From a bacterium (lineage in GTDB: Bacteria > SZUA-182 > DTGQ01 > JAFGSM01): 18,117 nucleotides of DNA. The translations under genes were made by a program, and so were the position numbers. The notes below the pieces were generated by a model. That model worked only from the letters and a program-made list of their open reading frames with translations. It did no database searches and was not told the DNA's origin. Where the stretch lies: NCBI GenBank assembly GCA_049472355.1, contig JBLIRP010000075.1:1-18117 (forward strand). The letters run 5' to 3'. Position 1 is the first letter of the stretch. Each line of letters starts with the position of its first letter. Positions 2 to 18,099 of the stretch are shown one piece after another.

Positions 2-928
2 ACTAGGCAGTATTTTTCGGTTCTGTGCCTCAGTTTAATGGTACTGTTCTTAAGTGTTCTTTTTACTTCATTTACTCTGCATGCCCAGACCACCTACAAT
101 CCCTACTCCTATAGTCCTTACGGCTATTCAGGCTACGGCTACAGTCCCTACGGATACTCAGGCTACGGCTACAGTCCCTACGGATACTCAGGCTACGGCA
201 CCAGCCCTTACGGATACTCAGGCTACGGCTACAGTCCCTACGGCTATTCAGGCTACGGCACCAGCCCTTACGGATACTCAAGCTACGGCACCAGCCCCTA
301 CGGATACTCAGGCTACGGCTACAGCCCCTACGGATACTCAAGCTACGGCACCAGCCCTTATGGATACTCAAGCTACGGCACCAGCCCCTACGGATACTCA
401 AGCTACGGCACCAGTCCCTACGGATACTCAGGCTACGGCACCAGTCCCTACGGATACTCAGGCTACGGCACCAGCCCCTACGGATACTCAGGCTACGGCT
501 ACAGTTCCTTATACGGAAGTCCCTATGGGAGCATTGGGGGCCTCTCCGGGCTCTCCTTATATGGAGGGGGACTTGGAGGAATTTACGGAGGCGGATTAGG
601 TCTCTTGGGAGGGCTGGGGAGCCTCGGCGGAATCAGTTCCTTGTACGGACTCTCTGGAATCGGCGGACTCGGCGGACTTTATGGTGTTGATCCTCTGCTT
701 GGACTCGGCGGACTCTCTGGACTCGGCGGACTCAGCGGACTCGGCGGACTCGGATCTGTTTCACCGTTCTCCTTATCGAACCTCTTCTATCCGATTCAGA
801 CCGCAGGCGGATTGAGCTACCAGATCCCTTACTTACAGCTTGCACCGCTTCTTGGAGTGGGTGGACTCTACTCCCAGCTTTTCCCGTACCTGTTTGATCC
901 TACAGCGACCACGACGACAACGCAATAG
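2..928 (+). CDS. Secreted Tyr/Gly/Ser/Pro-rich tandem-repeat low-complexity protein of unknown function (5' end probably just outside the window)
   Basis: The ORF track starts at 38, but the frame is open from base 2 (TRQYFSVLCLSL-MVLFLSVLFTSFTLHA|Q). This gives a classic Sec signal peptide, and base 1 (g) could be the end of a start codon. Most repeat-unit variation is synonymous in this frame (ggc/gga, tat/tac, agt/agc, ccc/cct). The stop is TAG at 926-928, followed by a strong terminator. Confidence 0.85.
   Translation, partial: TRQYFSVLCLSLMVLFLSVLFTSFTLHAQTTYNPYSYSPYGYSGYGYSPYGYSGYGYSPYGYSGYGTSPYGYSGYGYSPYGYSGYGTSPYGYSSYGTSPYGYSGYGYSPYGYSSYGTSPYGYSSYGTSPYGYSSYGTSPYGYSGYGTSPYGYSGYGTSPYGYSGYGYSSLYGSPYGSIGGLSGLSLYGGGLGGIYGGGLGLLGGLGSLGGISSLYGLSGIGGLGGLYGVDPLLGLGGLSGLGGLSGLGGLGSVSPFSLSNLFYPIQTAGGLSYQIPYLQLAPLLGVGGLYSQLFPYLFDPTATTTTTQ
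119..508 (+). repeat. 13 tandem copies of a 30-bp coding repeat (consensus tacggatactcaggctacggcaccagcccc; YGYS[G/S]YG[Y/T]SP)
   Basis: Read directly: units start every 30 bp from 119 to 479. Confidence 0.97.
701..754 (+). repeat. Six copies of a 9-bp coding repeat ggactcNNN (GLG/GLS tripeptides)
   Basis: ggactcggc ggactctct ggactcggc ggactcagc ggactcggc ggactcgga. Confidence 0.85.
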
Positions 929-1054: not shown

Positions 1055-1816
1055 TCACCGATGGGCATCCATATATCCGGGAATTCGTATCATCCTCTGT
1101 CTGAGCATCTCGTACATGAGGATACCGCCGGCCACGCTGACATTCAACGAGCCGATGGAACCCATCATGGGAAGACGGACGATCATATCGCATTCCTCGC
1201 GCAGAAGCCTCCTGATCCCCTTGCCCTCTCCTCCCAGAACAAGGGCGAAGGGGCAGGCGAAATCCATCTGAAACCACAGGTCCTTACCGGCGGCATCGGC
1301 CCCGACAATCCAGAGGCCCTTATTTTTAAGTATGGCGCAGGTTTGAACGAGATTGGCCACCCGGACAACCAGGGTGCATGCCGTTGCGCCTGCCGAGGTC
1401 TTGGCGACCACCGGGGTTATATCCGCCGAGCGGTGCTTGGGCAGAACGATCCCCTGGACACCCGCGGCATGTGCGGTTCTGACAAGCGCCCCCAGGTTGC
1501 GGGGATCCTCGATGCCGTCCAGGATAAGCACAAAGGGGGGGGAAGAACTCCCCTGGAGCGTCTGAAGGAGATCATCGAGTGAATGTTCGGGGGGAGGCTG
1601 GGTCTCGGCGACCACCCCCTGGTGGACCCTTCCGGGGAACAGCTCCTCGACCCGCTGCCGGGGAACCCTGACGATGGGCACCCCCTGCTCGTGCGCCCGC
1701 TGCTCGATCCTCTCGACGAGGTACCCGTGCGCATCCTGGGCCATGATAATTCTCCCCACCGGTGTCCCGGTGGAAAGGATCTCCAGCACCGGACGGCGAC
1801 CGAAATAAAGGGCCAT
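1055..1816 (-). CDS. rlmB: 23S rRNA (Gm2251) 2'-O-methyltransferase, SpoU/TrmH family
   Basis: Motifs ILDGIEDPRNLGALVRTA, LGGEGKGIRRL and IGSLNVSVAGGILMYE, plus HQGVVA in the N-domain. Start moved to the ATG at 1816 (MALYFGRRPV), which has an upstream AGAGGA RBS. Lies downstream of cysS, as is common. Confidence 0.93.
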   Translation of the reverse strand: MALYFGRRPVLEILSTGTPVGRIIMAQDAHGYLVERIEQRAHEQGVPIVRVPRQRVEELFPGRVHQGVVAETQPPPEHSLDDLLQTLQGSSSPPFVLILDGIEDPRNLGALVRTAHAAGVQGIVLPKHRSADITPVVAKTSAGATACTLVVRVANLVQTCAILKNKGLWIVGADAAGKDLWFQMDFACPFALVLGGEGKGIRRLLREECDMIVRLPMMGSIGSLNVSVAGGILMYEMLRQRMIRIPGYMDAHR

Positions 1817-1829
1817 GGAATCGTTTCCT

Positions 1830-3251
1830 CTATTTTGCCCGCCAGATGGTTTTTCCGCCAGGCTGATCCTCAAGCAGGATATCGAGGTCGACAAGACGGT
1901 CCCTGATCAGGTCGGCTGTGGCCCAGTCCCGTTTCTGCCGCGCCGAGGAACGAACCTCGATCAGTATCCCGATCAGGTCCCCTGCGAGATGACCCACCTC
2001 GCCCTTATCCTCCCCCTGAAAGAGGGTCAGTACCTGACCGAGATCCTGCACGGCCTTCTTGGAGGCCCGCAGGTCCGCTATCGCCTGGGCATCCACGGGG
2101 GATTCCCTTAGGAGAAGATTGATCCCCTTGATGAACTCGAAGATGTGCCCCAACGCACCCGCCGTATTGAAATCGTCATCCATGGCCGCATCGAATGCAC
2201 CCTTGAGGGCGCATATCCGCTCCCGGCATGCCTCGCTCGGGTGAAGATCCCCGGCGGGTCCCTCCAGACGCTCGATGTTCTGAAATGCGGTATATACCCG
2301 CTCCAGTGCCCGCTGGGCCTCCTCGATCCTTTCCGGGGTAAAATCGATGGGGCTTCGATAGTGGGTGGAGGCAAGGAAATAGCGCACCGCCTCGGCCGGA
2401 AACTCGGAGAGGATATCCCGGATGGTACAGAAATTCTTGAGTGACTTGGACATCTTCTCCTGGTTTATGCTCACGAATCCGTTATGGAGCCAGTAGCGGG
2501 CAAAGGGTTTCCCCGTCGCCGCCTCGGACTGGGCAATCTCATTTTCATGATGGGGGAAGATGAGGTCCTCGCCCCCCCCGTGGATATCAAAGGTGTCCCC
2601 CAGATATCGTTGAGACATCACGGAACATTCTATATGCCAGCCGGGCCTGCCCGGTCCCCACGGACTTTCCCATGTAGGCTCCCCCGGTTTCGATCGTTTC
2701 CAGAGGGCAAAATCGAGCGGGTCCTCCTTGCGCTCGTCGATCTCCACCCGGGCCCCGGAACGCATCTCATCCACGTTTCTTCCCGAGAGCTTGCCGTAGT
2801 CCTTGAATTGCCGCACACTGAAAAAGACATCACCCTCCCGCTCATAGGCAAAGCCCTTCTCAATAAGCACGCTCACCAGGCGTATCATGTCCTGGATATG
2901 GTCGGTGGCCTTGGGTTCAATGGTGGCGGGCCGCACCCCCATTCGCCCGAAATCCTCCTCGTAGGCATGGATATAGCGGCAGGCCACCTCATCGGGATTA
3001 CACCCCTCCTCGCAGGCACGGTTGATGATCTTGTCATCCACATCGGTGAAATTCCGCACGTAGGTCACCTGGTATCCCTTGTATTCCAGGTAGCGACGGA
3101 TGATGTCAAAGACGAGGGCGCCCCGGGCATGACCGAGGTGGCACAGGTCATACACCGTTACCCCGCACACGTACATTCCCACCTTCCCGGGGGCCAGGGG
3201 GCTGAATGCCTCCTTTTTCCGGGTCAAGGTGTTGTAAACCATTACACTCAT
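1830..3251 (-). CDS. cysS: Cysteine--tRNA ligase
   Basis: MYVCGVTVYDLCHLGHAR (HIGH-type motif), GRPGWHIECS, DIHGGGEDLIFPHHENE, KMSKS and MDDDFNT. Confidence 0.98.
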   Translation of the reverse strand: MSVMVYNTLTRKKEAFSPLAPGKVGMYVCGVTVYDLCHLGHARGALVFDIIRRYLEYKGYQVTYVRNFTDVDDKIINRACEEGCNPDEVACRYIHAYEEDFGRMGVRPATIEPKATDHIQDMIRLVSVLIEKGFAYEREGDVFFSVRQFKDYGKLSGRNVDEMRSGARVEIDERKEDPLDFALWKRSKPGEPTWESPWGPGRPGWHIECSVMSQRYLGDTFDIHGGGEDLIFPHHENEIAQSEAATGKPFARYWLHNGFVSINQEKMSKSLKNFCTIRDILSEFPAEAVRYFLASTHYRSPIDFTPERIEEAQRALERVYTAFQNIERLEGPAGDLHPSEACRERICALKGAFDAAMDDDFNTAGALGHIFEFIKGINLLLRESPVDAQAIADLRASKKAVQDLGQVLTLFQGEDKGEVGHLAGDLIGILIEVRSSARQKRDWATADLIRDRLVDLDILLEDQPGGKTIWRAK

Positions 3252-15372: not shown

Positions 15373-15596
15373 TTCTTTTTATTGATTTAAAAGGTGTTCT
15401 CTTCTGGTACAATATTTGCATCCTACTTGTGGAACTTAAGCGCCCCGTCAATGTATATGCATATGACCATACACGTGCGAGGAAACGAAAAAGGCGCGAA
15501 TAATGGCCCTTTCATTGTAATCGAAAGGGCAACCGGGTACAAGACGATCATTTTCACTACATGGACTGTCAATACTTGAAAGGAGGTCCCTCTATT

Positions 15597-17312
15597 ATGA
15601 AGAAGGCACTGGGCACGCTTCTCACCATACTGCTGGTGTTCATCATGATGACCACCCTGTCGGCCGCCGCACAGGAGCAGAATGATTCCAATCCGGCCGG
15701 GAGCAAGAACAACGGCAAGGTCATCGCCGAGGTGAACGGTCTTAAGATCCATACCGCGACATTCGAGAAACTCATGCAAGGCCGTGCGGATCCGCAAGCC
15801 CTGCTCGATCAGATCATCGCCTACCTTCTTCTTGCCGAGGAGGCGAAAAAGAAGGGGGCCAGTCAAGGGCCCGAATTCGAAGAACAATTGGAGATGATGA
15901 AGGAGCAGCAGCTCGCCAACTTCTTTTACAACAGAGAGGTCGAGGACAAGGCGGAATTGACCGATAAGGATATCGAAAAAATGATCCCTGCATCGGATAA
16001 ATACAAGGTCAACTTTCAGCAGATCCTCGTGAATACGAAAGAAGATGCTGCGGACATCCTCAAGACCCTCCAAAAGGAACCGGATTTCAACAAACTTGCC
16101 AAGGTGCGATCCAAGGCGAAAAATGCCTCCAAGGGCGGGCAGATCGGGTATGTTATCCCCAACACCGGATATTTCGAGGGCGAACTTTCAGACGAGGATG
16201 AAAAGAAGATCTTTCGACTCAAGGACGGAGAGGTGAGCGAACCTATCAAGACCCGGCAGGGGTATGCGATCTTCAAGGCCGTGAGCAGGAAGGAACTGAC
16301 GGAACAGGAAATGGAGAGCAGGAAAAACTATTTGCGGTATAAGTTTCAAAAGACCAAACTGGACGAGGTCCGCGATAGTCTGCTCGACCGTTTGAGATCG
16401 AAGGCAAAGATTGAATTGAACGACAAGAATATCAAAAAGCTGGAAAAATCCGACAAGATCAACGAGGCATCGCTCAAGCTGGTGGTCGCAACAGTGAACG
16501 GCAAGGAGATCCTCCTCAAGGAGATCCTGCCCCCCCAAAGGCCCGAATACGGCTACCAGATGAACAGCCCGTACCTTAAGCAACCCGAATTTTTGAAAAA
16601 TATCATCAACGAAAAGGTCAACAGCGAGCTTTTTCTTGAAGAGGCGAAACGGCTCAAATACGACCAGAATGAGGAATTCAAGAGGACATTCGAACTCCTC
16701 AAAAACGGACTGGTCGGACAGACCTACGCCATGGAGTATGTAAAGGACGTAAAGGTGACCGACGAGGAATTGAAGGAATATTTCGAGACCAACAGGGAAC
16801 GGTTCAAGGAGATGCCGGAACGAATCCGTGTCCGCCACGTTCTTGTACCGGATGAGGAACAGGCAAAGGAAATCCTCGCCAAAATCAAGGCAGGCGGTGA
16901 TTTCGAGAAGCTGGCAGAGGAATTCTCAATTTGCCCGACCGCCAAAAACGGCGGAGACCTCGGATACTTCTCCCGGGGCAGGATGGCCCCCCTGTTCGAA
17001 GAGGCCGCCTTCAAGCTCAAAAAGGGAGAGGTCAGTGATGTGGTGCGAACCAATTTCGGTTTCCACATCATCAAGATGGAGGACCATAAGCAGGCGGGGG
17101 CATCAAGCTTGAGCGATGTCAGATACGAGGTTGAACAAATCGTACAGTTTCAGAAAAGGGATAAAAAGATTCAGGACCTTATTGCCAAACTGAAATCAAA
17201 GGCATCGATCACCACAAATCAGGAAGCCCTGAAAAAATATCAGTCTTCCCTCCCCACCCCGCCCATGAGTTTGCCCATGCAGGACATGCAAGGCGGAGGA
17301 ATGATGCAGTAA
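15597..17312 (+). CDS. Exported peptidyl-prolyl isomerase/foldase with two PrsA-like parvulin modules
   Basis: RBS AAGGAGG, then the signal peptide MKKALGTLLTILLVFIMMTTLSAAA. Canonical parvulin RVRHVLV...FEKLAEEFSICPTAKNGGDLGYF...FGFHIIK, with a degenerate first copy FQQILV...GGQIGYV...QGYAIFK. Confidence 0.9.
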   Translation: MKKALGTLLTILLVFIMMTTLSAAAQEQNDSNPAGSKNNGKVIAEVNGLKIHTATFEKLMQGRADPQALLDQIIAYLLLAEEAKKKGASQGPEFEEQLEMMKEQQLANFFYNREVEDKAELTDKDIEKMIPASDKYKVNFQQILVNTKEDAADILKTLQKEPDFNKLAKVRSKAKNASKGGQIGYVIPNTGYFEGELSDEDEKKIFRLKDGEVSEPIKTRQGYAIFKAVSRKELTEQEMESRKNYLRYKFQKTKLDEVRDSLLDRLRSKAKIELNDKNIKKLEKSDKINEASLKLVVATVNGKEILLKEILPPQRPEYGYQMNSPYLKQPEFLKNIINEKVNSELFLEEAKRLKYDQNEEFKRTFELLKNGLVGQTYAMEYVKDVKVTDEELKEYFETNRERFKEMPERIRVRHVLVPDEEQAKEILAKIKAGGDFEKLAEEFSICPTAKNGGDLGYFSRGRMAPLFEEAAFKLKKGEVSDVVRTNFGFHIIKMEDHKQAGASSLSDVRYEVEQIVQFQKRDKKIQDLIAKLKSKASITTNQEALKKYQSSLPTPPMSLPMQDMQGGGMMQ

Positions 17313-17534: not shown

Positions 17535-17610
17535 GCTGGCGTAGCTCAGCCGGTAGAGCAGCTGATTTGTAATCAGCGGGTCGGGGGTTCGAATCCCTTC
17601 GCCAGCTCCA
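17535..17610 (+). tRNA. tRNA-Thr (anticodon UGU)
   Basis: 76-nt cloverleaf: acceptor GCTGGCG/CGCCAGC, D-arm GCTC/GAGC, anticodon arm GCTGA-TTTGTAA-TCAGC, T-loop TTCGAAT, and encoded CCA. Confidence 0.98.
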
Positions 17611-17897: not shown

Positions 17898-18099
17898 TTT
17901 TCCGGCAGAAGACATAACATAGTTCTTGAGTCCGTGACATTTTTTCTGGCAGAGGACATAACATAGTCCTTGAGTCCGTGACATTTTTTCTGGCAGAGGA
18001 CATAACATAGTCCTTGAGTCCGTGACATTTTTTCTGGCAGAAGACATAACATAGTCCTTGAGTCCGTGACATTTTTTCTGGCAGAAGACATAACATAGT
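17898..18099. repeat. 44-bp tandem repeat, about 4.6 copies (ggcagaRgacataacatagtYcttgagtccgtgacattttttct)
   Basis: The ggcag anchor recurs at 17904, 17948, 17992, 18036 and 18080. Copies differ at only 1-2 positions and have no unique spacers. Confidence 0.95.

Follow-up and report, generated by a model that had tools for sequence, protein, structure and literature searches.

What is the Gly/Tyr repeat protein, predicted to be exported, that is encoded at one end of this DNA, and what could a bacterium build with it? The window, i.e. the whole stretch of 18,117 nucleotides that was analysed, is an entire contig of a 3.49-Mb genome (G000), 87.5% complete. Frame 2-928 (+) encodes 308 aa, hereafter P0001. 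A preliminary description had it running past the edge of the window; the start is indeed missing, but by ~5 nt only, since the orthologue of the congener G001 begins MMTRQ, and the ORF is thus almost complete. The features are the following.

2..928, + strand: P0001 gene, predicted secreted Gly/Tyr repeat protein (ORF call; syntenic orthologues in G001-G004, beside rlmB in G005)
2..85, + strand: predicted Sec/SPase I signal peptide, residues 1-28 (sequence, KD19 hydropathy 2.34, orthologues)
63..78, + strand: coding-region arm of a predicted long-range RNA helix, pairing with the 5' leader (congener comparison)
86..118, + strand: mature N-terminus and partial repeat
119..508, + strand: 13 decapeptide units (12 exact), residues 40-169; 34% Tyr, 27% Gly, 24% Ser
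509..760, + strand: Gly/Leu block, residues 170-253; 43% Gly, 26% Leu
761..901, + strand: unnamed order-restricted 47-aa module, residues 254-300 (profile searches, alignment, low-confidence AF2 model)
902..928, + strand: Thr-rich tail and stop codon
971..1017, + strand: intrinsic-terminator-like hairpin with T-run; 17-bp stem at 971-1007
1055..1894, - strand: rlmB/SpoU rRNA methylase, convergent; housekeeping genes beyond

Cleavage of the signal peptide is predicted by eye and hydropathy at residues 28/29 (TLHA before Q), and the orthologues have LYA or LNA before Q at their sites. The mature chain of 280 aa (G76 Y58 S49 L32 P22 T17) holds 3 Ala, 3 Val and two Asp, and is devoid of K, R, E, H, C, M and W. 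Thus the earlier portrait of an almost charge-free Gly/Tyr repeat chain, exported as judged by hydropathy, is borne out, as are its Gly/Leu block and its dense [G/S]Y[G/S] motifs, of which we count 32. Thirteen units YGYS(G/S)YG(Y/T)SP had been announced: 12 match YGYS[GS]YG[YT]SP exactly, while the last is degenerate and ends in SS instead of SP. TRF finds a 30-bp unit in 12.7 copies at 119-499. A proline occupies every 10th residue from 39 to 159; its share in the Gly/Leu block is only 2%.

Tandem DNA repeats leave several frames open and this ORF lies at a contig edge, so that a non-functional repeat expansion or a mis-called frame (e.g. in place of the overlapping Thr/Pro ORF 54-599) has to be considered. 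In the P0001 frame the 12 repeat units differ by 5 synonymous and 2 non-synonymous codon variants, versus 2:6, 1:6, 1:6, 1:7 and 4:3 in the other five frames. For the C-terminal module, pS and pN are 0.172 and 0.009 relative to G001, and 0.757 and 0.094 relative to G004; the C-terminus is under purifying selection. In 4/4 congeners the orthologue is flanked by a divergent fxsA and a convergent rlmB, and that of G005 likewise abuts rlmB. The synonymous bias limited to the P0001 frame, the low pN/pS, the synteny, the conserved leader described below and the terminator largely refute the artefact, to which we give next to no credit: P0001 is a real, conserved coding gene.

The repeats themselves vary. 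In the four orthologues the sequence of the unit, the unit count and the length (233-309 aa) all differ, yet their make-up remains alike (G 19-28%, Y 17-26% and S 16-23%, with 0-4 charged residues and neither C, W nor M). This is the pattern expected if composition, and not fold, is selected. Contigs near-identical to the 3' half of the gene are present in 5 of 6 RNA-library runs (X1-X5) from three studies, and in two runs of one study they end at 978 and 980, within the terminator-like hairpin. Such contigs give no expression level and may include DNA carry-over (X1 covers all 30 bins); run X9 left the gene without cover, and in X4 nothing aligned at 93%.

The C-terminal segment had been called unique. 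This does not hold, as four paralogues in G000 carry the same module, which makes five copies in this genome. The search with the C-terminus that the preliminary description had recommended was productive: profiles detect the module in 12 of the 13 genomes of the order (1-6 matches each, a few of them partial) and in 0 of the 7 other genomes of the class, and 21 genomes further removed yielded no match to a single-sequence search. In the GTDB collection 38 module loci were located, spread over 10 assemblies of which almost every one is an unclassified MAG. An HMM was also run exhaustively against 1.84 billion cluster representatives: 19 of its 20 matches are real, and the remaining one, cluster P0021, was discarded as a repeat ORF without relation to the module. 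The single match of a full-length homologue search with P0001 was composition-only and was also set aside.

Twelve of the 47 module positions are invariant over 34 rows, an Asn and a Gln among them. In 87 of 88 matches (redundant loci counted) the module comes directly behind a tract that is rich in Gly and poor in charge. What comes after it differs between the 54 distinct rows: a short tail (27), a 30-aa tail (14), a ~120-aa domain starting AEQxGxW (8) or a helical CxxCH domain (5). The module tree (54 rows, 47 columns, after removal of 20 weak or partial matches) replaces a first tree with spurious rows. It supports the P0001 orthologue group loosely (SH-aLRT 91) and intermixes the carriers of the AEQxGxW domain and of the haem motif. 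Long P0001-like proteins with Tyr/Ser repeats, a Gly/Leu block and a Thr-rich tail also occur in a sister family (L104, L105 and L106 in G009, G007 and G011 respectively); they sit convergent to an RlmN-like gene (named by eye) rather than to rlmB, and their modules form a separate clade.

P0001 matched no Pfam family at E<=1 (hmmscan), the 34 module rows gave nothing usable in Pfam, and seven proteins run against NCBIfam produced a sole match at E 0.65. Neither a PDB sequence search with the module nor the ESM Atlas, searched with the whole protein and the module, returned a match or anything usable respectively. The family was thus rightly called uncharacterised, and P0001 rightly kept apart from CsgA, FapC and TasA, for which Pfam and NCBIfam gave no match. 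AF2 predicts for the module alone a beta-hairpin then a helix, at low confidence (pLDDT 55.7); beside the CxxCH domain the module reaches pLDDT 49-57 and the helices of that domain 77-89. A fold search with the module alone gave no Z>=2, and these blank family and fold searches do not establish a new fold. A homotrimer prediction scored 0.00 and was counted neither for nor against binding. The module was also considered as a transmembrane helix, an assignment rejected as unclear (best KD19 just 1.22). Since the fold is not confident, it is from conservation and position that we infer a docking unit common to the subunits.

P0001 is one member of a large modular repertoire that extends over the order. 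In G000 a charge-poor Gly/Tyr segment marks 63 ORFs, and 58 of these have a signal-peptide-like start, compared to 27% of 1985 background ORFs. The pattern coding for YGGLYGGLYG is present in 13/13 genomes of the order and in 0/28 outside. Among 20 selected cargo-bearing ORFs, Pfam recognises chagasin inhibitors (2), Kazal repeats (1), alpha-2-macroglobulin (2), as well as subtilase, polysaccharide deacetylase and Cthe_2159; two have weak LVIVD and TSP3 matches and ten have nothing. In several Gly/Tyr proteins (G000 C91:8528-9073, C115:17271-17942 and C85:17780-18415; P0011, P0012) the signal peptide is followed directly by a short segment, often acidic, with an R-x-A-like motif at its end. 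This segment is absent from P0001 and is possibly a cleavable solubility pro-peptide. Many mature Gly/Tyr chains start with Gln, and glutaminyl cyclase is encoded in 9/13 genomes of the order, several times in open frames of 380-545 aa. The enzyme was not found in G000 or G001, and its action on the N-terminal Gln was dropped as a candidate.

A subfamily of these Gly/Tyr proteins, present in 6/13 genomes of the order, ends in an unnamed ~100-aa helical domain with a CxxCH motif:

L047:2737-3462, L048, L051, L061, L095, L099 and L100: CxxCH-domain loci

In 17 sequences the two Cys, the His of the motif and an upstream His are invariant, and the domain is a putative monoheme cytochrome by its sequence. 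It was found in none of the 6 genomes of the family to which G000 belongs, G000 included. In G006 it follows a Gly/Tyr tract without the module, which is therefore dispensable for this cargo. The model of module plus CxxCH domain, compared to solved structures, gave a best Z of 4.9 and no Foldseek E<0.001.

The DNA upstream of the G000 gene is not assembled, and promoter and leader were thus analysed in the congeners. A sigma-54-type motif lies 182-191 nt upstream of the ATG in 4/4 orthologues, within the most conserved upstream block. G000 encodes RpoN and 15 activators of the GAFTGA type. Sigma-54 motifs are weakly enriched in the repertoire (6/56 versus 25/695, p 0.022).

About 140 nt upstream of the ATG, an arm of the leader pairs with signal-peptide codons (63-78 in the window). 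In G001 and G002 the predicted helix is a perfect one of 16 bp, whereas G003 and G004 have 11+6 bp; it encloses the ribosome-binding site and the start codon. Over 688 background genes the longest such helix is 14 bp, and 685 of them have 10 bp or less. In an alignment of six sequences 94% of cells pair, compared to 31-48% in slid controls. Changes on both sides affect 3/19 pairs of this helix and 4/9 of a second hairpin. The covariation score beats 500/500 shuffles, whereas the number of covarying pairs fails to do so (32/500); moreover, the six sequences are relatives of one another and served to derive the structure. The structure occurs once per genome and is limited to the genus (4/4 congeners). 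It is not general among the Gly/Tyr genes: the longest helix in 56 of them is 11 bp, and they show no surplus relative to background genes (p 0.88). Folding of the whole region gives ordinary z-scores (-1.16, 0.11 and -0.85), and Rfam did not match the leader. As an element in its own right, this genus-specific structured leader comprises a 16-19-bp helix, a second covarying hairpin and an invariant G-run:

window 63-78; L021:6830-7125, L022:9400-9696, L023:6229-6530, L024:4818-5119, L120 and L121: structured-leader sites

Four metagenome pattern matches were also obtained; among them L118 was rejected as spurious and L119 stops before the gene. The leader-CDS helix might serve to protect the mRNA, or to control translation during export.

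Where could the chain go, and what could harden it? The host is a diderm (4 Omp85 matches) with a type II secretion system (two GspD secretins plus GspE/F/G, over cut-offs). In a diderm, a Sec signal by itself takes a protein no further than the periplasm, and the P0001 gene sits among housekeeping genes. Peroxidase, tyrosinase or secretion genes had been looked to as neighbours; the window has neither a secretion nor an oxidase gene near P0001. In G000 at large, at 87.5% completeness and with working controls, no catalase-peroxidase (KatG-type), DyP, heme-copper oxidase (COX1) or bd oxidase was found. For multicopper oxidase, 2/13 genomes of the order are positive and G000 is negative, again with a control; tyrosinase and animal-type peroxidase gave 0/13 in searches without a positive control. 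This lack of detectable oxygen-dependent cross-linkers makes the proposed DOPA or dityrosine hardening unlikely. G000 is rich in cytochromes: at least two CxxCH motifs occur in 43 ORFs, with as many as 60 in a chain, and genes for the assembly of cytochrome c are present. Giant multiheme ORFs lie at C92:11990-21787 (60 CxxCH), C67:34681-42543 (49), C136:3190-7392 (28) and C67:29569-33648 (26).

Our preferred reading, whose chance we put at about even, is that P0001 serves as one subunit of a soft matrix or coat that resembles suckerin material, is held together non-covalently and lies beyond the inner membrane. Suckerins offer the closest motifs: in the passages available of PMC11931252, their M2 motifs GYG, GGY and GGLY take part in a non-covalent assembly, which implies that such motifs can yield a strong material without covalent links. 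P0001 shares with them GYG, GGY and GGLY, Pro as a delimiter, a block architecture and a multigene family (same passages of PMC11931252), in line with the likeness to animal structural proteins that had been pointed out. It lacks the crystalline M1 (His/Ala/Val/Thr-rich), the mature chain having 0 His, 3 Ala and 3 Val. The comparison is one of motifs with animal proteins, and the resemblance is likely convergent. With the FUS LC domain, P0001 has in common the dense [G/S]Y[G/S] stickers and an even Pro spacing as in the 12P variant, which phase-separates without aggregation; in the part of PMC12934744 consulted, evenly inserted Pro keeps phase separation and blocks cross-beta aggregation and ageing. 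FUS, unlike P0001, is intracellular and RNA-binding, whereas P0001 is exported and nearly Gln-free. For an extracellular bacterial case we turn to the anammox surface protein Brosi_A1236, whose disordered repeats, according to extracts of PMC7482068, phase-separate and glue cells, a precedent for phase separation and aggregation without amyloid. As described there, it differs from P0001 as a large single S-layer protein with Thr/Ser/Gly-rich disorder and no repertoire of Tyr stickers (PMC7482068).

P0001 might instead stay in the periplasm, as the envelope of an inclusion or as an inner layer, in the manner of sulfur globule proteins. SgpA/B/C of Allochromatium vinosum are, in the sections of PMC10386293 that we could use, Sec-exported to an extracytoplasmic site, very hydrophobic, repetitive and keratin-like with regularly spaced Pro, and are encoded by several genes per genome (1-6); sgpD is transcribed as a unit of its own and has an intrinsic terminator (PMC10386293). 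P0001 resembles them in these respects, and in joining a Sec signal (by hydropathy) to a hydrophobic repetitive mature chain; moreover its Sec signal alone would reach just the periplasm. It differs by its longer chain, by belonging to ~60 genes, and by the conserved module with enzyme and inhibitor fusions. PF17228 matched neither P0001 nor the 20 cargo ORFs (hmmscan) and gave 0 over the whole genome in a search without a positive control. In the order, dsrA was over cut-off in 0/13 genomes and soxY was found in 0/13, the latter with a positive control. As such tracts also occur on a polysaccharide deacetylase, a subtilase and a carbohydrate-binding domain, the surface fits better than the periplasm, and we hold the periplasmic location to be unlikely. 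A functional amyloid, or a covalently hardened (dityrosine/DOPA) sheath, appears quite improbable. The 32 Tyr motifs and the Pro-poor Gly/Leu block would suit it, the invariant Asn and Gln of the module could nucleate fibres, and at high concentration suckerin M2 peptides are able to adopt beta-sheet, as stated in the portions of PMC11931252 at hand. Against it stand the Pro at every tenth residue of the repeat block, which, with the FUS LC precedent in the same part of PMC12934744, favours an amorphous gel over amyloid, and, for the hardened sheath, the missing peroxidases and oxidases listed above. Curli offer an amyloid comparison.

The curli subunit CsgA is a Sec-exported, Gly-rich, repeat-containing matrix protein of diderms. 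P0001 is unlike it in having no curlin match (Pfam, NCBIfam), no Gln/Asn ladder repeats and a periodic Pro, and G000, as far as it is assembled (87.5%), has no full-length CsgG but only partial matches of 55-60 residues in two proteins of 719/739 aa. The partial-CsgG proteins (714-739 aa), at G000 C117:16374-18518 and C73:14140-16359, each lie behind a similar two-gene set; one of them had no NCBIfam match at 1e-10. Endospore coat proteins do not apply either: the host is a diderm and Spo0A_C is 0 in G000, the control being positive. Thus by membership features P0001 falls outside sulfur globule proteins, curli, spore coats and suckerins. The Tyr-rich matrix could also be a mineral-adhesive, redox-active scaffold placing cytochromes for extracellular electron transfer, which is partly compatible with the soft-matrix reading. 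The many multi-CxxCH ORFs with their assembly genes and the module-bearing CxxCH subfamily in 6/13 genomes speak for this; but neither G000 nor any of the 5 other genomes of its family yielded the domain, its model has no structural match, P0001 has no haem motif and no genetic linkage to the large cytochromes was seen. We consider such a scaffold very unlikely.

Returning to the soft, suckerin-like matrix, its formation might proceed as follows. The gene would be transcribed by itself from a sigma-54 promoter, and the 5' leader of this mRNA would fold back on the signal-peptide codons. The chain would be exported by Sec and cleaved by SPase I, and type II secretion would probably carry it to the surface. 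There, Tyr stickers between Gly/Ser spacers would drive coacervation with dozens of similar chains, the Gly/Leu block would add hydrophobic contacts, and the periodic Pro would keep the material amorphous rather than amyloid. The module would provide specific docking among subunits and, together with the Gly/Tyr tags, may co-recruit partner subunits and protease inhibitors and, in sister families, the putative one-haem domain. A wider picture, which we advance tentatively as possible and hardly as probable, is that this uncultured order independently evolved a suckerin-like, condensate-based extracellular material. Its ~60 charge-free Gly/Tyr chains would act both as matrix and as address tags, the docking module would be swapped between tails, the AEQxGxW domain and the one-haem domain, and the sigma-54 mRNA leader would clamp the signal-peptide codons, tying translation to the export of an aggregation-prone chain.

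The protein matrices known from bacteria are based on amyloids, S-layers or a small number of envelope proteins, and we found no description of such a bacterial family in the open-licence PMC and bioRxiv literature, supplements aside. Judged from its sequence, P0001 would belong with the secreted self-associating low-complexity structural proteins (self-association being predicted), to which it would add an unnamed module family. If the reading is true, a genome encodes a library of dozens of exported Tyr-sticker chains that tag protease inhibitors and enzymes, and bacteria use condensation to organise a compartment beyond the cytoplasm, apparently with no oxygen-dependent cross-linking. The orthologues, with the same composition and different repeats over 233-310 aa, form a natural series in which the sticker-and-spacer and Pro-periodicity rules are testable, and would offer bacterial suckerin-like sequences for biomaterials. 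The helix between leader and signal peptide is likewise a testable cis-element that would couple synthesis with export.

At the other end of the window, 15561-17312 encodes a 583-aa exported protein with two parvulin PPIase domains (SurA/PrsA-like), possibly a foldase for Pro-rich exported proteins. A tRNA-like sequence lies at about 17535-17610, upstream of a 44-bp tandem repeat (17898-18099, 4.6 copies, 97% matches) at the contig end.
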